A DNA stretch of 39,579 nucleotides from a virus. Shown here piece after piece: positions 282 through 38,233 of the stretch. The stretch lies in UHGV virus genome UHGV-0251828. One strand, 5' to 3'. A program made the position numbers and the translations under genes. The notes under the pieces are model-generated. The model was not told where the DNA came from. It worked only from the letters and a program-made list of their open reading frames with translations, and did no database searches. Positions within the stretch are counted from its first letter, which is position 1; every line of letters begins with the position of its first letter.

Positions 282-461
282 ATGCGAAACGAAAAATTGC
301 AGATGCGTAGAGCGCAAGCTGCCGCAAGACGTTCTTTCAATGGAAGCGTAGAGTGCGTAAAAGTTACTATGACAAAAGATCACGCAAGTCGCGTATCCCG
401 CGCTTTCTTTGATTCTCGTAACAATAAGGAAAATTATGAGTTCGTCTGCGTCGCAGAATGA
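282..461 (+). CDS. hypothetical 59-aa protein with Arg/Ala-rich N-terminus; overlaps next gene by 26 nt
   Basis: ATG with GAGGT Shine-Dalgarno 7 nt upstream; not in ORF track (<60 aa); hand-translated MRNEKLQMRRAQAAARRSF... Confidence 0.35.
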   Translation: MRNEKLQMRRAQAAARRSFNGSVECVKVTMTKDHASRVSRAFFDSRNNKENYEFVCVAE

Positions 462-981
462 TAAAAATCAAATTGTCAGATATAAGGGTCGAGTATTGCA
501 TACGCAAAATTTCTCGGCCCTTTGTGCATCTGATCTTGAGCTGAAGAAAGTATCTGATGCCTTTACCCAGTATTGGAAAACGGGATACCATCCATCTCTT
601 GGTAAAGATGCTGCATTTGCTCGTCCGACAGAAATGCTTAAACTAAATGTCAGGCATACTCATGTCGATAACCAAGACTATATTCCAGAAGATAGTGATA
701 AAAAACACACTGGTAAAAAATCATCTTGGGATGCATGGAAAAAAATAGCGTCTGTGCAAGTAAAATGCATACCAACAAGTAATTGCTTTTTAGTTTATTC
801 GGTAAATCACAATCGTGATGCGCTGGTTATGTTTTTTGTTGACGCAGATGCCCACAACATAACTGAGCAAGAAGAGTTTAAAGAGGCAGCAATCACTATC
901 AGTTATCAATTCTTTGAGAAAACAAAAACAGAACCAATGCCTTTAGAAGAAGATCTTTTTTCTGATAAATGGAAGGAATAA
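436..981 (+). CDS. AT-rich accessory protein, 181 aa; possible YafO-like toxin fold (from memory)
   Basis: ATG at 436 with AAGGA SD (track ORF 409..981 starts at an upstream TTG); motifs VRHTHVD and FLVYSV...DADAH; terminator directly downstream. Confidence 0.6.
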   Translation: MSSSASQNDKNQIVRYKGRVLHTQNFSALCASDLELKKVSDAFTQYWKTGYHPSLGKDAAFARPTEMLKLNVRHTHVDNQDYIPEDSDKKHTGKKSSWDAWKKIASVQVKCIPTSNCFLVYSVNHNRDALVMFFVDADAHNITEQEEFKEAAITISYQFFEKTKTEPMPLEEDLFSDKWKE

Positions 982-1074: not shown

Positions 1075-1236
1075 ATGAAAAAAGCATTTGCTGCACTGTT
1101 CGTTTTGTTGTCTCTGGTAGCTTCAACTCAGGCCTTTGCCGGTCGTTGTCAGCACGACAGCGATACTGCCGCTGACGGCTCCCGCTGCGGTGGGCGTTCT
1201 GCGGATTCCCGCCCGGGTGGCGGTGGCATTCGTTAA
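1075..1236 (+). CDS. small secreted peptide (53 aa; predicted Sec signal peptide, ~31-aa mature part with 2 Cys)
   Basis: MKKAFAALFVLLSLVASTQAFA signal-peptide-like N-terminus within track ORF 1003..1236; TTGACG -35-like hexamer at 1034-1039; weak SD. Confidence 0.4.
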   Translation: MKKAFAALFVLLSLVASTQAFAGRCQHDSDTAADGSRCGGRSADSRPGGGGIR

Positions 1237-1259
1237 AAACAAGGCCGCGAAAGCGGCCT
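1235..1259 (-). terminator. intrinsic terminator ending the minus-strand virion operon
   Basis: GGCCGC-GAAA-GCGGCC hairpin; T-run on minus strand (A-run 1235-1241 on plus). Confidence 0.6.
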
Positions 1260-1271
1260 GTGACATGTCAC
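1260..1271. repeat. perfect 12-bp palindrome GTGACATGTCAC, copy 1 of 3
   Basis: Exact match; contains the stop codon of the 1268..1564 gene; abuts the terminator hairpin. Confidence 0.8.
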
Positions 1272-1564
1272 GTTCCTTTTCTGAATGATAGCCGTTCGAA
1301 AAATGATGACATTCCACCGCAGACAATAGCAAAGATGATCCCACCAAAGAAGAGAAGGCCAGCCTGCCACCACTCCCACCGCCATACATCCACAGCGCCA
1401 ATCATACCAACAATCGCTCCAACAAACGGAATATAACTCACGACAAAAGCAACGGGAGCTGCAATTACCCAGTGCAACCCCCACCATGATTCAAGCCCAG
1501 CCATAATTGCTGCCAACTGAAAAAGACCAACGACGATATAAACAATGAATCCTATAGCTTGCAT
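1268..1564 (-). CDS. small membrane protein (98 aa, about 3 predicted TM segments)
   Basis: Track ORF; ATG with AGGTGA SD; hydrophobic segments. Confidence 0.6.
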   Translation of the reverse strand: MQAIGFIVYIVVGLFQLAAIMAGLESWWGLHWVIAAPVAFVVSYIPFVGAIVGMIGAVDVWRWEWWQAGLLFFGGIIFAIVCGGMSSFFERLSFRKGT

Positions 1565-1576
1565 GTAGTCACCTAT

Positions 1577-1750
1577 TTACCCATTAAAAATCAGAGGCCT
1601 CCCCTCAATAAGGCTTGCAACAAGAACTACTCCCTGCACAACAAAGATGAACCAGCAAATAGCTTGAGTCTGAGGGTTAAGAAAATATTTGTAGCGGTCA
1701 ATAAATAACAATCCACCAGAAATTATCACACTCAAAATAATTAAAAACAC
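1577..1750 (-). CDS. small hydrophobic protein (~57 aa), GTG start
   Basis: Hand-translated; AGGAAG SD 5 nt before GTG; two hydrophobic stretches; below ORF-track size cut-off. Confidence 0.3.
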   Translation of the reverse strand: MFLIILSVIISGGLLFIDRYKYFLNPQTQAICWFIFVVQGVVLVASLIEGRPLIFNG

Positions 1751-1759
1751 AACACTTCC

Positions 1760-4234
1760 TTATTGCGGAGTGACATCCTGAGGTCGCCACCAGTATGTCT
1801 GGTTAAACTCTTTCTTCGAACGTTGCTCCATTTTACGCAAATAGCCTGGTGAAAAATACTCCTGCATCTGGTTAAAGATCATGTGATCGAGAGCCGCCTT
1901 CAAGTACCAGAGATTCGCACCAGGCATCAAACCTTTCCCCAGCTTCACCAGATCACCACCAGTCTGCTCACTCTTCCCTTCCACAGCATTTAACGGTATG
2001 CCCTGAGCAATCTTCACTACGTCATCAACCAGACCAGCTACCGGGCCAAGCATCGACGCCAGCGCGCCGCTTCCGTACCTAGTGTGATCTGACAATAAAA
2101 AGTCACCATAAAGGCCAAGACCACCACCTTTCAGTAGAGCACCAAGCCAGAATTTTGCGGCATCTTCTCCTGTCATCTCTCGAGGATTACGACCAGACGC
2201 AAGGTCGTTAAGTTGTTGCGACAAAGCGCCAAGAATGGTCGTACTGGCAATAAACGTCGCAATATATGCCGCACGCCCACCAGCAGACGGCATACCCATA
2301 GCGCGTGACCAGTGACGCATAACAACCGAGATAGGGAACGATTTAAACAGGAAAACACTTCTCGTTAATTCACCTTTCCATGTTCCACGCTGAATACCAG
2401 AACCGGTTATCAGTTGCTCACGTGCTCCCGGTGTAATAACAGCCATATCAACTTCTTCAGTTACGGCACCGAGCAGTTTACGCATTGCCTCAAATTTCAC
2501 GCGTTCAGGCTCACCAAGATGTTTAACTGCTGAATCAGGGATACGCATAATGCTTTCCGGTGTCAGCATCGTATTATTACCGTTCCCCCAGTCCTCCTGT
2601 TGCGCCAGCTTCCATACGCTCCAGTCTGTGTCAGTAATCCCTTTGCTTTTCAGGATACGAAAATCAGAGTCATCGAGGCTACGAAGGTCTGGTGTTCGTG
2701 ACACTACTTCTCCCAGGCTTCCCATCATGGTTACGCCATAGGCGCGCTTGTGCGCATCTGACCATGCTGTAAGCCCACTGGCACGCATTACCGCCGTTGC
2801 CGCCCAACGAGACACTGACGGCCCCATATTATCCATCGCCCAGCGGTTAACGCTGCCAAGTAGAGATTCCATCGCCAGACCAGCGCGGCGCGCCCGCGCA
2901 AGTTCTGTACGGTTCGTTGGGTCCATAGCTTCAAGCTGGTTGCGGAATAACTGGTTCATTGGAAGGTTGGTAACCTTCGCAGACAGATACATGGTTCCAA
3001 GATCAGAGAACGATGACAGCAACGCGGATCCGAGTCTGCTGGCAACCAGCCAGTTGCGGATATTGTCAGACCATCGCGCGATGTGCGGATTCGCTACAGG
3101 CTGTGTCTTTCCGGAAATAAAGTTGTACAGATTCTCTGTGTTGTTCGCCAGCCGCTCGACTTTACCGGTTTTACTCGGGTTAGCTGTTGCCGTTTCTGCC
3201 TTAACCTGATCAAGAAGGGAGCGGAAAACATGATCGGGGTTTGGACCATATGTTTCCACCAGTGCAATATCTTTACTGATACCTTCCAGGTGACCGACCA
3301 TGATTTCCCATAGAGAGCGATCGCCATAAAGTTGCTGATATTGCAGATAGGAATCTGCATCTTTGAAATGTATCTGTCGTGATGCATTACCACGGTTAGC
3401 ACGTGCGCCGGAAATTCGCATTCCGGTATCAGTAAGCTTATTCAGCCCACCAGTAGCGATCGTGTTATAAGCCTCTCCAAGAAATGCAGACAACTCGGCA
3501 TCGTTCATCAGTTGTCCATCGGCTCGGATATAATATTTGCGATCCAGCTTACCTATAACATCGCTAACCCACTTATCCTTTGATACCGCCCCAACCTTTT
3601 CCATAGAATGATGTTGAGGGATCCCCCAGTTTTCGAGATAGCCAATGTCCCCACCAGCATCATTAAACCTGCGGCGCAGTAGCTCTGTCACTTCTCTCCA
3701 CGCCTTAGCACCTTTTCTTGCTTTAGCATTGCCAGTATTTTGCCCCCGCATTTCATATACCAGGTCACGTACGCCCGCTTCATCTTCAAACAGACCAAAA
3801 AAGCGAGGATCAACTGCTTCGAATGCCTCCTGCAATTGACTCAATGCATAATCACGGGTGGCTTTTGTTCTGGATTCAACAGAGAGGAAATTCGATTTAC
3901 CGTCTGCATTAAAAGCAATAGTACGGTTAAGAGCGCCAAGTTTCCCATCAGCCCCTTGATAGCTATTGATAAATTTATCCAATCTCTGACGTGCGGCTAT
4001 AGTGAGGGCCACACGACGTTTCTTTAATGCCGCTTCTCGCTGTAATTCTTCAGATGCCAATTGTGCTGCACGATATAGCCGCTCTGATTCGGAAAGTTGT
4101 CTCCACGACATCGGGTCATCACGAGCAATGGAGCGCATATTTCGATAAATGCGGTCTTCAATGTTCTGTATTTCTCGCGCCGTTAACGTGCGCTGCGCCG
4201 CCTGCTGGACCGCTTGTATACATTCCTGTCTCAT
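1760..4234 (-). CDS. internal virion/ejection protein (T7 gp16-like position)
   Basis: 824-aa track ORF; GAGAGG SD; last large gene of the virion operon. Confidence 0.75.
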   Translation of the reverse strand: MRQECIQAVQQAAQRTLTAREIQNIEDRIYRNMRSIARDDPMSWRQLSESERLYRAAQLASEELQREAALKKRRVALTIAARQRLDKFINSYQGADGKLGALNRTIAFNADGKSNFLSVESRTKATRDYALSQLQEAFEAVDPRFFGLFEDEAGVRDLVYEMRGQNTGNAKARKGAKAWREVTELLRRRFNDAGGDIGYLENWGIPQHHSMEKVGAVSKDKWVSDVIGKLDRKYYIRADGQLMNDAELSAFLGEAYNTIATGGLNKLTDTGMRISGARANRGNASRQIHFKDADSYLQYQQLYGDRSLWEIMVGHLEGISKDIALVETYGPNPDHVFRSLLDQVKAETATANPSKTGKVERLANNTENLYNFISGKTQPVANPHIARWSDNIRNWLVASRLGSALLSSFSDLGTMYLSAKVTNLPMNQLFRNQLEAMDPTNRTELARARRAGLAMESLLGSVNRWAMDNMGPSVSRWAATAVMRASGLTAWSDAHKRAYGVTMMGSLGEVVSRTPDLRSLDDSDFRILKSKGITDTDWSVWKLAQQEDWGNGNNTMLTPESIMRIPDSAVKHLGEPERVKFEAMRKLLGAVTEEVDMAVITPGAREQLITGSGIQRGTWKGELTRSVFLFKSFPISVVMRHWSRAMGMPSAGGRAAYIATFIASTTILGALSQQLNDLASGRNPREMTGEDAAKFWLGALLKGGGLGLYGDFLLSDHTRYGSGALASMLGPVAGLVDDVVKIAQGIPLNAVEGKSEQTGGDLVKLGKGLMPGANLWYLKAALDHMIFNQMQEYFSPGYLRKMEQRSKKEFNQTYWWRPQDVTPQ

Positions 4235-33313: not shown

Positions 33314-33811
33314 TCAGTACCACGATTTTTGCTTCTTCAGTGAATCGTATTGCTGTTCGCAGGATTCTCCTGCAATCCGATACTTTTCAGCCTCAGCTGC
33401 TGTTGCGTTGTAAACTCGGTTGCTTTCTTCAAGCATGTCGGCGAGCACACCGATGACCTTGCTGGCTGGCGTGCCAGTGGGGAAAGATCCGGTATAGTGT
33501 TCGGCGAGTCGCTTGGTTTTGTCAAGCTCGGCGCGCAGGCTGTCAGCAGCGGCATTAGCATGCTCAGCATCAACACGCGCCACATCGATACGGGATTGTG
33601 TTTCACGTTCAATTTGTGTTTTCTCCTGATCACGTTGTGACCTGGCCTTATCATCAGCCTGTTTCTGATCTTCCTGTGCCTGCGCATACCCGGCGTCGTA
33701 CTGACGACTGCCGTGTGCATTCCAGGCTACAACTCCTGATATGACCAGAACAGCAAGCATCGCCATGATAACCAACTGTTTCCAGTATGCTTTTGCGAAT
33801 GCCCAGATCAT
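33314..33811 (-). CDS. Rz-like i-spanin
   Basis: 165 aa; N-terminal TM segment then charged coiled-coil; start overlaps endolysin stop. Confidence 0.65.
33337..33585 (-). CDS. Rz1-like o-spanin lipoprotein embedded in the Rz frame; start uncertain
   Basis: Alternate frame inside Rz; signal peptide with lipobox LTAC and Pro-rich mature part. Confidence 0.45.
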   Translation of the reverse strand: MWRVLMLSMLMPLLTACAPSLTKPSDSPNTIPDLSPLARQPARSSVCSPTCLKKATEFTTQQQLRLKSIGLQENPANSNTIH

Positions 33812-34437
33812 ACCGCCAGCACCTTACTGGCAGTGATGTATCGCGCGCGCCGGTCATCAATGCCGTTCCGGCCACCATTGATAAGCAGAGTTACACGTGC
33901 AATATCTCCGGTATACTTCATGCAGCCTTTGCTGGAGAAGAACCACGCCGCGCTACGAGCCGCGTATTCGTCCTGCGCCAACAGTTCAGGATTCTCCAGC
34001 AGGTCCACTTTCAGGCCGTTTCCGCAATCACGATAGTTATTCAAACCGGTAATCTGGATAAGTCCGCGACCTCGGTAATTCCAGCCATCGCCGGGGGCAT
34101 TGTTCCCCATGCGTTTGCTGTACACCAGATTTGCGATCGCACGCTGGCGCTCGAGTGGTAATGGCGGTTCACCAGCACGGCGACCCAGTGCGTTGGCCTG
34201 TCCCTGAGTGAGACGACCGGCACGAACGAAGTTAGCCAGTCCGGTGACGCTGTAATTGAAATTCTCCTGCAACCTGGTGAAGCCTCCAGACTCATGCCCG
34301 ACCTGAGCAATAAACATAGCCTGATCTTCTGGTTTGCTGATACCAAACTCTCTCATCGCAGAAGTTATATACGAGAACCAGCGTGCAGCCAGCGCCTCGC
34401 TGATACCAGCAGCTCGCTGGAATTGTTTAATCTCCAT
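33808..34437 (-). CDS. endolysin (GH19-type by motif, from memory)
   Basis: Track ORF 33808..34602 trimmed to ATG 34437 (GAGGT SD); motif QVGHESGG...GRGLIQITG. Confidence 0.75.
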
Positions 34438-34735
34438 GTTTAGACCTCGATACTTTGAAAATTTGAACGACGTTACCGCGCGTTTTAATAACCGCAGCGA
34501 GCATGACAGCGTTGATAATGACCTCAGATAAATCCACAGCCATTGGCGTGCGGAACCAGATTGCATAGGCAACACGAATCGGAATACTGGCCGCAGCAAC
34601 AATCAGGAAATAAGCAAGCCACCCCCCCCATCTTCGATGTTGAGATCCGTTACGCCGGAATGTGACAACGCGAATTGCTATGCCAGTACAAATAACTGCA
34701 TTGGTGATAAGCAAAAAAAACTCATGCGTTACCAT
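34427..34735 (-). CDS. small membrane protein (holin or antiholin-like, 102 aa)
   Basis: Track ORF; GGGAG SD; two hydrophobic segments; overlaps endolysin start. Confidence 0.5.
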
Positions 34736-35126
34736 CGTCTTTTCTCCCCGGAATTAACTCGCGTGGATTATCGGAACGGTGGTAGAGCCATATACCAATA
34801 CGCACAGCAACAATTGCTGACACGAATGCGCCAGCAGAGAAAACAATCCCTTTTTCAAAAGAGTCCTGCGTGATAGTAGGGATCAGGCTGGCTATGCCGA
34901 TAAGAATTGATGCTGCTGGTTTATAAAAAAGAAGGCCGCAGAGAAAGCTAAGCATCGATAAGAGTACGCGACGATGAATTGGGTACTCTACCGCAGAGGT
35001 AACAAAAATTACCGCACCAGCCAAAGACCCTAAAGCAACCTCAGGAGGAACTCCTGCTATAACCGCAGCAAGAGAACTCATGCTAAGCCATTGATTTAAA
35101 GATTCACTGGTTAGTTGAGCTGACAT
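34722..35126 (-). CDS. holin-like membrane protein (~134 aa); start uncertain
   Basis: Track ORF 34722..35159; ATG candidates at 35126 and 35138; 3-4 hydrophobic segments and charged C-terminus. Confidence 0.5.
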   Translation of the reverse strand: MSAQLTSESLNQWLSMSSLAAVIAGVPPEVALGSLAGAVIFVTSAVEYPIHRRVLLSMLSFLCGLLFYKPAASILIGIASLIPTITQDSFEKGIVFSAGAFVSAIVAVRIGIWLYHRSDNPRELIPGRKDDGNA

Positions 35127-35383
35127 AATGTGCACCATATTTTGTATATACAGATCCACTTAAACTGTCAGCTAATTATACACAACAAACCATATAAGAA
35201 TAATTATTACTCAATATTATTCTTGATTATTCGTATTTATCCGGTGCGCCGTAAAAACCAGTTCTTCTTGGCGTAGAGGATGTCAAGAGAATTAAATGAT
35301 AATTACATTGTTGATAAGTGGCGTCCTTGCCGTGGTAATTACTAAACTTATGATTTCTCCGCCATGCCTGATATGGAAAATAA

Positions 35384-38233
35384 TTACTTATTTTTTTCCA
35401 TTGGTTCAGCCTTATTGAGTTGTTCCTTAAGCTTATTCCATGCTGAATCCTCAGGCATCTGTACTCGCACAGAAACGAACTGATTAGCAGGAATGTCGAT
35501 CGGGTCACCGTTCGAAACACCAGGGATGTCGTTACGTGCAAAAACTGGCGAGTTATCATGAGTGCGGTGAAACGTTTTCACCAACACAGAGCCATCTTGG
35601 TTAACAACATAATCCAGCCAGATGAGCGGCTGCTTGTTTCGGTCCTGCGGTATTTCAAATCCACCATCAATCCCCCCCCATGAAGCATCTGCATTCAGAC
35701 CTACGCAACCCTCAATCAGATATTCCCCCAATGCCAGCCGTGTGACGGTTACCCCATCTGATTCGCGATTTGTTTCACTACTACCGTCTGAGAAAATCTT
35801 CACAACCGGAGAGGCTTTTTTGATGAAACCACTTGAATCGACGGTCGTGTTCAGCGACGACCATGCCTCAGCCCAGCCTGTGTTACCTGCGCGAATAGCA
35901 TCGTCTGCGTAGCGGAAGAACAGTTTTGATGTTGTGGACATGAATATCTGCAACACACGGTTTTTTGCATATCCTGACTCCCATAATGCTCCGTTACCTG
36001 TTCCTTCTGGCTGCCAGTTTGTCACCCCACCTGCAGCTCCTACACTTACACCAGTAGACCAGTCTCCAGCAAATTCTGGAAGATTTAGTGAGTTAGGTGA
36101 GCGAATTGATACATCAACCAGACCAGGGGATCCGAGAATCGACATGCTGCGGGAGGACACCTTAGTAAAAGAGTTGTACCCGCCGTTTTTGGAAATCCTT
36201 CCTGTATAATTATTAGCCCTGTTAGTTCCATTAACTGTAATTTCCCAGGTATCGCCGTTGATGAAGTCGATCTGCAATAGGCAGAATGCTGGCAGCGTCA
36301 TCTGTCCTGGCGCAGATGGCCCACCTTCAAACAGTGGCATATCCTGTTCAAGATATGTCACATATCTACCTGCATCTGTATTCCGCAAATAGTCACAAAT
36401 AGCCTGTGCCGATGTAAATAGCGCAATACCATCAGCCGGGTTTACAGGGTGACGGCCAGCGTTAATCACCCTTCCGCGAGGGTTAAATAACTGTGATGAG
36501 GCATTGGATAGCGGAGTCATGTCTACTGTTCCAGGTTCATTAGATGGACAGTTAGCGCGAATGATGTTTAAAGTCCTATAATTTGATCCGCCCCCATTGT
36601 CATAGCGAATAGACTGTAGAAGATACAATTCCTCAGAGCCAGAAATATCACAAGACTGCACCCCCTCATTTTCAGTGGAGTAAACACTCTTCCCTGAATA
36701 ACTATCCCAGTATGTTTTGAAATCTGCAGGTGACAGCAGGTACTGACCTAATTCTGAACCATTAAGGCTGTACTCAATATAACCCTGCAACCCTGCGAAA
36801 GTATTTCCAGATCCCGCCGTGGTAGATGCACCAATACCAGCAAATATCCGTTGAGAACCAAGAGCGACACCCTGCCGTTTTGGTTTACCGGCTCCGCGAC
36901 CTCCAACATTTGCATCAACCGTAATAGTCCCCATTGGACTGTAAGATCCTTCTATAAGGCTGTTAATATCCAGTGTGTTAAAGATATTGGATACACCTGT
37001 CTCAACATCAAAAATTTTCGGCCAACCCATATCCGCATTTTCGTATATCAGGGTATTACCAAAGCCACTAAACTGATATCGCACTCCAAGGCGTGTTGAT
37101 TCAGTGAAGTTTGTAATCTGCGTTTTATCAACCAGCGTACGCGGATCTTCGATAGGGTAAATTCTGATAGTGCGAGATGGGCTGTACGGCAGCAGGATGT
37201 AACGCTGTCCTGCCACTCGGTAAACGTGGATGCCTTCTGGTGCACCAACGTTATTCGGAAAATGAAGACGTGTTACCAATGCTCCTGTTACCCAGTCATG
37301 CACCGTAACCCATACCGATGCGGGGTCTAGCGTCTGCCAGCCGATGTATACCATTCCATCATTGCTGTCTATGTAAATCCCCTGAAATCCCATGGTCGTG
37401 TAACCATACTGATCTTTAAGATCTGCGGTAATCTCATCGTCTATGATGCTGAATTCTAATTTCCAGTTCAGCGGCCTACGCGTACCACTGACATGCCTGG
37501 AAATATGAGACAGGTAGCTTTTTTTCCCTCCGGCCAAAATGTAACGCGAGGTTATTTCTGTCACTATGCCGACTGCAGCAGGAGTAACACGATAAACAGC
37601 CCCATTAATCCTGACAAAGTTTGAAATGGTTTTTATCTCATACCCGACAGACATGTCCAAGCGAGAGCTGTCATATTTGCCATTAGCGAGATCTGTAACA
37701 TACATTGCGTTGTCGATGTTATCAGGCCTAACTACCCCACTATATAAGTCTTGCACATATTTTTTTGTTACAGCATCCTGAGAGTTCTTCGGATCGGCCA
37801 AATTGGAAATTCTGTTTTGCTTTGCATCGTAATATTTTGCAAGCAAAGATGGTTTCATCAATGCACGTCTGAACCACCCAAAACATCGCTGGATCAGCAT
37901 CGTCAGGTAGTCAAATGCATCTTCATGAACTTCGGGGAAAAATTTTCCCTGATTGCGAAGATCAGTCTCCTGCACCACATCAAGCACACGCTCTATCGTG
38001 ATTCGCCAGCCAGCAGCAAGCGGCGACGGAAGAACCACTGCACCGCCACTATAAGTTCCCGCCCCTGTTACTGTATAACCAGCATCCAGCACTAGTTCTG
38101 TTACGTTACCGTTAAGGTCAGACACCTGAACAACCAGGTCGGATTTTTTGAAAATACGGAAGGTATACGGAAATGATGTCGTAACGCCGTTACCTGTGTA
38201 TTCGTTGTGGTCAACTTCGGTTGAGACCGTCAT
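35384..38233 (-). CDS. tailspike protein
   Basis: 949-aa track ORF; GGAG SD; Ser/Gly/Asn-rich central region. Confidence 0.85.
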   Translation of the reverse strand: MTVSTEVDHNEYTGNGVTTSFPYTFRIFKKSDLVVQVSDLNGNVTELVLDAGYTVTGAGTYSGGAVVLPSPLAAGWRITIERVLDVVQETDLRNQGKFFPEVHEDAFDYLTMLIQRCFGWFRRALMKPSLLAKYYDAKQNRISNLADPKNSQDAVTKKYVQDLYSGVVRPDNIDNAMYVTDLANGKYDSSRLDMSVGYEIKTISNFVRINGAVYRVTPAAVGIVTEITSRYILAGGKKSYLSHISRHVSGTRRPLNWKLEFSIIDDEITADLKDQYGYTTMGFQGIYIDSNDGMVYIGWQTLDPASVWVTVHDWVTGALVTRLHFPNNVGAPEGIHVYRVAGQRYILLPYSPSRTIRIYPIEDPRTLVDKTQITNFTESTRLGVRYQFSGFGNTLIYENADMGWPKIFDVETGVSNIFNTLDINSLIEGSYSPMGTITVDANVGGRGAGKPKRQGVALGSQRIFAGIGASTTAGSGNTFAGLQGYIEYSLNGSELGQYLLSPADFKTYWDSYSGKSVYSTENEGVQSCDISGSEELYLLQSIRYDNGGGSNYRTLNIIRANCPSNEPGTVDMTPLSNASSQLFNPRGRVINAGRHPVNPADGIALFTSAQAICDYLRNTDAGRYVTYLEQDMPLFEGGPSAPGQMTLPAFCLLQIDFINGDTWEITVNGTNRANNYTGRISKNGGYNSFTKVSSRSMSILGSPGLVDVSIRSPNSLNLPEFAGDWSTGVSVGAAGGVTNWQPEGTGNGALWESGYAKNRVLQIFMSTTSKLFFRYADDAIRAGNTGWAEAWSSLNTTVDSSGFIKKASPVVKIFSDGSSETNRESDGVTVTRLALGEYLIEGCVGLNADASWGGIDGGFEIPQDRNKQPLIWLDYVVNQDGSVLVKTFHRTHDNSPVFARNDIPGVSNGDPIDIPANQFVSVRVQMPEDSAWNKLKEQLNKAEPMEKNK

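Follow-up and report, generated by a model that had tools for sequence, protein, structure and literature searches.

The virus genome UHGV-0251828, a single stretch of 39,579 nucleotides to which we refer as the window, carries two small genes, ORF57 and ORF98, directly behind the last of its ejection (internal-virion) genes. We are confident that their products are real, accessory, non-structural proteins, predicted to lie in the inner membrane, and that they belong to a variable cargo slot at the end of the ejection operon. More tentatively, and with somewhat less than even confidence, we propose that they function in superinfection exclusion at the step of DNA entry, in a manner analogous to SieA of phage P22, a proposal that draws on their position, their predicted localization and the variability of the slot.

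By megablast of its first 5 kb, the 39.6-kb window is a complete temperate podophage of the epsilon15/phiV10 type, genus Uetakevirus, with approximately 98% identity to phiv142-3, HEMP4 and phiV10, and its gene set includes a minus-strand structural operon, an integrase, a tail fibre and a lysis cassette. The ORF57/ORF98 region is 100% identical to a prophage of Escherichia coli S1-CAM-04-C and to a 39.7-kb contig in IMG/VR. Three large ejection genes encode proteins of 862, 600 and 824 amino acids, and the gene for the 824-residue protein comes last (1760..4234, minus strand). Its product matches phrog_684 ('virion structural protein') over the full length with E = 0 and is a homologue of epsilon15 gp17 (28% identity, E 1e-95), while the gene itself is 98% identical at the nucleotide level to phiV10 gp20. 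We treat this gp17-like gene as the context of the finding, outside the cargo. In the circular gene order, ORF57 and ORF98 are located between it (1760-4234) and the Bro-N/tail-fibre region.

ORF57 (1577..1750, minus strand, GTG start) encodes a 57-residue membrane protein with the form of a two-helix hairpin, and ORF98 (1268..1564, minus strand, ATG start) encodes a 98-residue, three-segment protein predicted to reside in the inner membrane. An earlier reading of this DNA (the original prediction) had placed two small membrane-protein ORFs of these sizes at 1268-1750, after the last internal-virion gene and before the operon terminator, and both the ORFs and their placement are borne out. The genes are tightly packed, with 9 nucleotides between the 824-residue gene and ORF57 and 12 nucleotides between ORF57 and ORF98, and a Shine-Dalgarno sequence lies in each gap. 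The stop codon of the 824-residue gene is followed by GGAAGTGTT and then by the GTG of ORF57, whose Shine-Dalgarno sequence is TAAGGAAG; the TAA stop (1762..1760) overlaps this Shine-Dalgarno sequence, AAGGAAG (1761..1755), so that the two together occupy 1755..1762 on the minus strand. The context TAAGG(A/G)(A/G)G precedes all 75 of 75 ORF57 homologues. The intergenic sequence ATAGGTGACTAC (1565..1576, minus strand) contains the ORF98 Shine-Dalgarno sequence AGGTGA and also marks the 5′ boundary of a mobile cassette described below.

ORF57 and ORF98 are genuine genes, as seen from purifying selection, strong ribosome-binding sites and conserved homologues. Selection was assessed by comparison with Klebsiella phage BUCT711, which is approximately 75% identical at the nucleotide level. 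In ORF57, 18 of the changes are synonymous and 17 non-synonymous (omega 0.20), and in ORF98 the numbers are 46 and 13 (omega 0.03), whereas two alternative frames give omega values of 1.4 to 9.5. The overlapping ORFs 1123..1401, 1233..1487 and 1260..1436 were rejected as spurious, with off-frame omega above 1. Homologue families were found for both genes. ORF98 aligns along residues 1-98 with positions 1-98 of the 98-position profile phrog_3075, a family of unknown function (E 8.4e-53), and has 43 homologues in a collection of 5.8 billion proteins, all in Enterobacterales; an alignment of 20 homologues has 20 invariant columns, with the motifs GLESWWG, YIPLVGSIVGMVGA and WxWEWWQAGLLFFGG. ORF57 has 13 homologue clusters of 56-58 residues, positioned about 10 nucleotides after the gp17-like gene in both contexts fetched, and among 75 copies the start codon is GTG in 53 and TTG in 22. 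The gene is not called by PGAP in RefSeq E. coli genomes and is likewise missing from the GenBank records of phiv142-3 and BUCT711, an omission probably explained by the GTG/TTG start and the small size. In phiv142-3, a 1-nucleotide insertion led annotators to lengthen the ORF98 homologue to 118 residues. Of 5426 complete E. coli genomes, 205 (about 4%) contain the ORF98 cassette at a coverage of at least 80%. The GC content of ORF57 is 36.8% and that of ORF98 46.8%, compared with 49.2% for the genome.

The topology prediction that had been proposed as a check yielded three transmembrane segments for ORF98 and two for ORF57 by hydropathy, and for ORF98 the helices could also be taken from an AlphaFold2 model. 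The ORF57 helices span residues 1-19 and 30-48 and are joined by the basic loop DRYKY, which the positive-inside rule predicts to be cytoplasmic, leaving both termini in the periplasm. ORF98 is composed of three hydrophobic segments, with a Gly/Ala-rich middle segment and Trp-rich loops of 6-8 residues (ESWWG, DVWRWEWWQ), and it ends in a basic C-terminal tail that is conserved throughout the family and cytoplasmic by prediction. The AlphaFold2 model (predicted local distance difference test score, pLDDT, 88) places helices at residues 2-28, 32-43/46-59, where the kink falls at the invariant Pro46, and 65-97. A topology with both termini in the cytoplasm and a re-entrant middle element is suggested for ORF98, because fusion proteins are found in which an N-terminal cytoplasmic MORN-repeat region precedes this domain.

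The slot that begins 9 nucleotides after the last ejection gene is hypervariable, and at least 10 unrelated envelope proteins occupy it on nearly identical backbones. Among the isolated Uetakeviruses, epsilon15, phiV10, SPN1S, 66FD and Tyrion all have a small hydrophobic ORF directly after the gp17-like gene: gp18 of epsilon15 (64 residues, phrog_29212), gp21 of phiV10 and SPN1S_0020 of SPN1S (46 residues, phrog_7892) and gp19 of Tyrion (103 residues). The epsilon15, phiV10/SPN1S and Tyrion proteins belong to mutually unrelated families. In phiV10, whose ejection gene is 98% identical to that of the window, there is no ORF98, and an unrelated 46-residue protein with two transmembrane segments takes the place of ORF57. 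The same variability is seen in a survey of 80 IMG/VR loci with an ejection protein that shares at least 94% identity with that of the window: 36 contain ORF57 with ORF98, 25 a protein of the gp21 type, 7 a two-transmembrane protein of 43/54 residues, and 12 other genes, which are mainly a 137-residue lipoprotein (phrog_8691) plus one 126-residue lipoprotein (phrog_3716). The genes for these lipoproteins also typically begin 9 nucleotides after the stop codon. The occupants thus comprise two-transmembrane hairpins, lipoproteins and secreted proteins, and every one of them is predicted to be targeted to the envelope.

ORF57 is therefore one of several unrelated alleles located 9 nucleotides after the gp17-like gene. 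It occurs without ORF98 in prophages of Salmonella Muenchen and Klebsiella oxytoca, and elsewhere ORF98 is accompanied in its place by a 103-residue two-transmembrane protein or by secreted proteins of 123 and 175 residues. The possibility that ORF57 and ORF98 form an obligate pair was rejected, since ORF57 is found alone and ORF98 with other partners or with none; the two are therefore independent modules of an accessory slot. Slot alternatives at eight loci (L175, L191, L017, L078, L098, L070, L089 and L121) are all of unknown function and include a 126-128-residue lipoprotein (phrog_3716) and a 103-residue two-transmembrane protein (phrog_21905).

ORF98 is found on a compact cassette. When loci with different upstream partners are compared, similarity extends from ATAGGTGACTAC, the ribosome-binding site, through ORF98 and the palindrome GTGACATGTCAC to the terminator hairpin. 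ATAGGTGACTAC is identical before the ORF98 homologues in loci L070 and L102, which have different upstream genes, and is one base off in L078 (ATAGGTGACCAC). The palindrome is a perfect one of 12 bp (1260..1271) that lies over the ORF98 stop codon, just 5′ of the terminator stem. It is kept in L070, L078, L089 and L102, wherever the ORF98 cassette occurs with this terminator. In the RNA fold it adds a small hairpin of its own, and it might belong to the terminator or be bound by a protein. The rho-independent terminator of the ejection/virion operon itself (1232..1259, minus strand) is composed of a 7-bp GC-rich stem, a 4-nucleotide loop and a T-run, with the stem at 1259..1242 (AGGCCGC-TTTC-GCGGCCT) followed by the tail TGTTTTTAAC. 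It starts eight bases after the ORF98 stop, its RNA fold has an energy of −16.5 kcal/mol (z = −2.5), and phiV10 and epsilon15 have an annotated terminator at the equivalent place.

Beyond close relatives of the window, ORF98 homologues of 51-66% identity directly follow the last ejection gene in a Salmonella prophage (36-nucleotide gap) and in the Kosakonia L013 prophage (1-nucleotide gap), and in a Yersinia prophage a homologue in the same identity range lies 465 nucleotides downstream of it. Although it stands behind an ejection protein only 24% identical to that of the window, the ORF98 of a second E. coli/Klebsiella lineage is 88.5% identical. The ejection proteins that adjoin ORF98 homologues share 21-27% mutual identity or are barely alignable. 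This disparity, 51-88% identity for ORF98 as against 21-27% for its neighbours, shows that ORF98 moves horizontally while keeping its position at the end of the ejection operon, and that it does not co-diverge with the ejection proteins. An ORF98 homologue was also observed in a P4-like integrative element (L010 / L011 7641..8312) with a DUF927-containing primase, AlpA and an integrase, where it adjoins an 872-residue SLT-domain protein, with Abi_2 or SocA_Panacea genes nearby; the stretch immediately upstream is a non-coding remnant, matching the 3′ terminus of the ejection gene in the Kosakonia prophage. The contexts of alphaproteobacterial homologues, which are prophage-like yet heterogeneous, were left out of the synteny comparison.

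ORF98 is predicted to be buried almost wholly in the bilayer, with loops of at most eight residues and a basic tail, and it therefore most likely acts within the inner membrane, probably as an oligomer. There it may bind either a host component of the inner membrane that is conserved or the part of incoming ejection proteins that inserts into the membrane, and in both cases the trans-envelope DNA conduit of the superinfecting phage could not open. Further exclusion factors acting at the envelope, as alternatives or in addition, would be ORF57 and the other proteins found in the slot. We favour such a function because the slot is hypervariable and filled with envelope proteins only, because P22 SieA, a sporadic protein with three transmembrane segments that targets the ejection-protein conduit, is encoded in the same interval, and because ORF98 is both intramembrane and highly conserved across hosts, as would fit a conserved inner-membrane target.

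Exclusion proteins are typically targeted to the envelope, and very small inner-membrane proteins that block phage DNA entry, as proposed here for ORF98, include T4 Imm, which has two transmembrane segments, and HK97 gp15. Imm is an early lytic gene, while HK97 gp15 is a promoter-bearing moron in the tail-gene region, beside the injection machinery that it affects, and depends on host PtsG. Neither is known to be related in sequence to ORF57 or ORF98. The closest parallel is SieA, which blocks DNA injection and is escaped by mutations in the ejection proteins gp16 and gp20 (PMC10883804). SieA is likewise a sporadic accessory gene product of a temperate podophage, P22 (PMC10883804), and its gene lies in an interval equivalent to that of ORF57 and ORF98, bounded by the last ejection gene on one side and the antirepressor/tailspike region on the other. 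It is an inner-membrane protein with three predicted transmembrane segments, and there is strong sequence diversity within its family; three hydrophobic segments are predicted for ORF98. The differences are also clear. SieA has 162-164 residues (family approximately 160-200 residues, with three to four transmembrane segments) as compared with the 98 residues of ORF98, which has no sizeable soluble loops, and the SieA motif FxRYPxEAxxFNK is absent from the ORF98 family alignment. P22 sieA is carried on the opposite strand, convergent with gene 16, and is expressed in the prophage from its own promoter (PMC10883804), whereas ORF57 and ORF98 have no detectable promoter of their own and are coupled to the late operon.

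Several results weigh against the exclusion function, and these fall into three groups: relatedness, expression and the breadth of the ORF98 domain. No sequence or fold relation to known exclusion proteins was found by hhalign against SieA, by PADLOC or by Foldseek. The ORF98 profile aligned with P22 SieA over 9 columns at an hhalign probability of 0.3%; Pfam, NCBIfam and PADLOC scans of ORF57 and ORF98 returned no match above threshold; and Foldseek searches of the ORF98 AlphaFold2 model against BFVD and PDB returned no match at E ≤ 0.001. With regard to expression, a consensus scan of the minus strand detected no sigma-70-like promoter 5′ of ORF57 or ORF98, a sliding-window analysis of the last 60 codons of the ejection gene detected no excess synonymous conservation that would indicate a hidden promoter (0.37 versus 0.42 overall), and comparison of the regions upstream of ORF98 cassettes revealed no shared sequence 5′ of the ribosome-binding site. 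Unlike sieA, both genes point in the same direction as the late ejection genes and are tightly packed behind them. They appear to be co-transcribed as the distal genes of the late ejection/virion transcript, and because they have no detectable promoter of their own and are co-directional and tightly packed, their expression is probably late-lytic and not from the prophage, which would be a poor fit to classical lysogen-expressed exclusion. Finally, an exhaustive profile search (E ≤ 1e-3) recovered the ORF98-type three-segment domain in 675 clusters at 50% identity, and its occurrence outside the enterobacterial ejection context means that its basic activity may be generic.

The original prediction had held that this position is often used by superinfection-exclusion or envelope-modifying genes. 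The part of this that stands is the existence of an accessory slot for envelope cargo, with sieA in the equivalent P22 interval; the part that fares less well is the exclusion role, given genes that have no detectable promoter of their own and appear to be read from the late operon. A quantitative reverse transcription PCR study of phiv142-3 gives up-regulated genes only, and orf12, the ORF98 homologue, is not among them, so that it is uninformative here (PMC7724020). Neither ORF57 nor ORF98 is mentioned in a review of ejection proteins (PMC8954989) or in the Uetakevirus papers.

One alternative is a late-lytic helper or self-protection role, in which small membrane proteins made alongside the membrane-active ejection proteins shield the inner membrane of the producing cell or keep the ejection proteins assembly-competent before packaging. 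Such a role would account for the tight coupling to the ejection genes (gaps of 9-12 nucleotides, and 1 nucleotide in Kosakonia L013), for the failure to detect a promoter belonging to ORF57 or ORF98, for the recurrence of ORF98 after the final ejection gene in at least four lineages, and for the small two-transmembrane ORF at the slot in isolated Uetakeviruses (epsilon15 gp18, phiV10 gp21, SPN1S_0020 and Tyrion gp19). We nevertheless consider it unlikely, since backbones with ejection genes at least 94% identical hold unrelated proteins or lipoproteins and no ORF98, which indicates that no specific partner is required, and since ORF98 is conserved far better (51-88%) than the adjoining ejection proteins (21-27%), which argues against co-evolution.

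The late-operon placement, size, number of transmembrane segments and charged or basic C-terminus would also be compatible with modulation of lysis timing, with ORF98 resembling a class I holin and ORF57 a two-transmembrane holin or pinholin, the pair tuning membrane permeabilization late in infection. A weak Pfam match of ORF98 to Phage_holin_5_2 (PF16079, E 0.012) points in the same direction, but it scores 16.3 bits against a cut-off of 29.2 and is seen in 3 of 20 family members, and ORF57 has no holin match. Indeed, a Pfam scan of 20 ORF98 family members gave inconsistent noise (DUF4134 in 4, Phage_holin_5_2 in 3), and both proteins fall below every holin family threshold. The phage also has a complete lysis cassette of its own elsewhere (33314-35159, minus strand), with a PF16931 holin, a PF05449 holin, a GH19 endolysin and a DUF2514 spanin. 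This cassette is several kilobases away in the circular order, so that neither ORF57 nor ORF98 has the endolysin gene as a neighbour, and lipoproteins and secreted proteins are also found in the slot. A role in lysis timing is therefore improbable.

The breadth of the ORF98-type domain raises the alternative of a generic small membrane channel or oligomeric module that alters host membrane physiology, for instance through ion leak or stress tolerance, without acting on phage entry specifically. The domain looks like an undescribed membrane domain family for which Pfam has no model. In addition to the 675 clusters of this large family, it is found fused to DUF805, to RDD and to MORN repeats (among the proteins P0066, P0089, P0093, P0104, P0112 and P0156), and P0066, of 427 residues, contains three to four tandem copies. 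Because the copies are joined in one protein, they suggest that the single-domain ORF98 proteins form homo-oligomers, and the helix pair kinked at Pro46 looks re-entrant in the model. The DUF805 and RDD membrane domains and the MORN repeats are themselves uncharacterized and provided no functional lead. The top Foldseek matches of ORF98 are K+-channel pores, but these are not significant, with fold similarity at noise level, and we rejected them as evidence given E values above 2 and TM-scores in the random range (0.25-0.37). There is also no selectivity-filter-like motif, and a generic channel would leave unexplained the strict placement of ORF98 behind ejection genes in enterobacterial phages. 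We regard this alternative as quite improbable.

The original prediction had also suggested that, with no large polytopic O-antigen polymerase or acetyltransferase in the phage, any surface conversion would fall to small inhibitors such as ORF57 and ORF98. Its premise is correct. By hydropathy, no window ORF of at least 40 residues has more than three hydrophobic segments, and the tail-fibre gene (35384-38233, minus strand) directly adjoins the lysis cassette with its two holin-family genes, GH19 endolysin and spanin; the phage therefore has no polytopic enzyme of the Wzy, Oac or Gtr type. The site downstream of the tail fibre, which contains an O-antigen acetylase or polymerase gene in phiV10, SPN1S and epsilon15, has none here. 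Small inhibitors of the host O-antigen alpha-polymerase do exist, as exemplified by Iap of Pseudomonas phage D3 and by gp22 of epsilon15, and the latter, a small hydrophobic Wzy inhibitor of 66 residues with two transmembrane helices, resembles the 57-residue ORF57 in size, in its two hydrophobic helices and in originating from the same phage genus.

The conclusion drawn from this premise finds no support, as no link to O-antigen or lipopolysaccharide emerged for either gene. The ORF57 family is not similar to epsilon15 gp22 (hhalign probability 0.15%), and its location does not fit: in epsilon15, phiV10 and SPN1S the conversion genes follow the tail fibre, and gp22, which adjoins the phage wzy of epsilon15, is expressed from the prophage, whereas ORF57 belongs to the late ejection operon of a phage that has no replacement polymerase. 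No prophage-type promoter was found, and apparent transcription from the late operon is unexpected for a gene of lysogenic conversion. Moreover, phiV10 and SPN1S have both Oac and the slot protein gp21, which means that the slot is no substitute for conversion genes. Downstream of the tail fibre, polytopic membrane genes of the O-antigen-modifying type are rarer in ORF98-positive relatives (5 of 29) than in ORF98-negative ones (15 of 31; Fisher p = 0.014, without correction for relatedness). This negative association might be read in favour of conversion by ORF98-carrying phages and also lends weak support to the exclusion function, but in both cases common descent and linkage to the tail-fibre module confound it. 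Inhibition of host O-antigen synthesis with conversion of the lysogen surface is thus very improbable.

Accessory membrane proteins between virion genes are of a known kind, represented by morons and sie genes. As in classical morons (PMC3594210), ORF57 and ORF98 are extra genes between conserved virion genes, variable among close relatives and ended by a terminator; their presence varies among backbones at least 94% identical, and the GC content of ORF57 is deviant. They differ in that classical morons bring their own promoter (PMC3594210), and none was detected here, the ORF98 cassette beginning at its ribosome-binding site. Holins offer a comparable mixture, with likeness in small size, in the three (ORF98) and two (ORF57) hydrophobic segments, in the charged C-terminus and in late expression, and with differences in family scores, in distance from the endolysin and in a phage already equipped with its own two-holin cassette. 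The two families themselves are uncharacterized, and one of them is unannotated. What is mildly new is a recognizable slot with a precise 9-nucleotide spacing, a promoter-less ORF98 cassette and the retention of its position behind strongly diverged ejection operons.

Returning to exclusion at DNA entry, a more specific form of this function, which we hold to be possible but doubtful, is that the ORF98 family represents a new, sequence-unrelated intramembrane gatekeeper. Carried on a promoter-less cassette with diverse enterobacterial podophage ejection operons, it would control whether phage DNA or ejection proteins can cross the inner membrane, possibly as a homo-tetrameric assembly of re-entrant helices on a conserved host factor, and the slot would be a dedicated hot spot for anti-phage envelope proteins of at least 10 families, a potential source of new exclusion mechanisms.

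Three plus-strand genes are located beside the slot. The first, at 282..461, is a 59-residue ORF (phrog_6685) that lies upstream of and overlaps a YafO-family toxin-like gene at 436..981 and could encode its antitoxin. The latter gene has a GC content of 37% and matches Pfam PF13957 just below cut-off (E 6.6e-5), and PGAP names the identical prophage gene YafO family toxin; the 282..981 pair resembles a toxin-antitoxin moron within the antirepressor region. The third gene (1075..1236) encodes a 53-residue Gly-rich signal-peptide protein that matches phrog_14503 ('membrane associated protein', moron category). It converges on ORF98, with which it shares the terminal hairpin, and it is found together with the ORF98 cassette in many loci, though not all.

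Current RefSeq annotation overlooks ORF57, although the gene is conserved and under selection. Should the two genes have a role in the lytic cycle instead of in exclusion, they would point to an unrecognized membrane step in the handling of ejection proteins. Phages of the phiV10 type are used against O157. Since about 4% of complete E. coli genomes contain the ORF98 cassette, it could influence which hosts therapeutic or typing phages can infect. If slot occupants do block DNA entry, several uncharacterized families would join the short list of inner-membrane exclusion factors, and the site immediately behind the final ejection gene in epsilon15-like and related podophages would be an easily recognized hot spot for more such factors.

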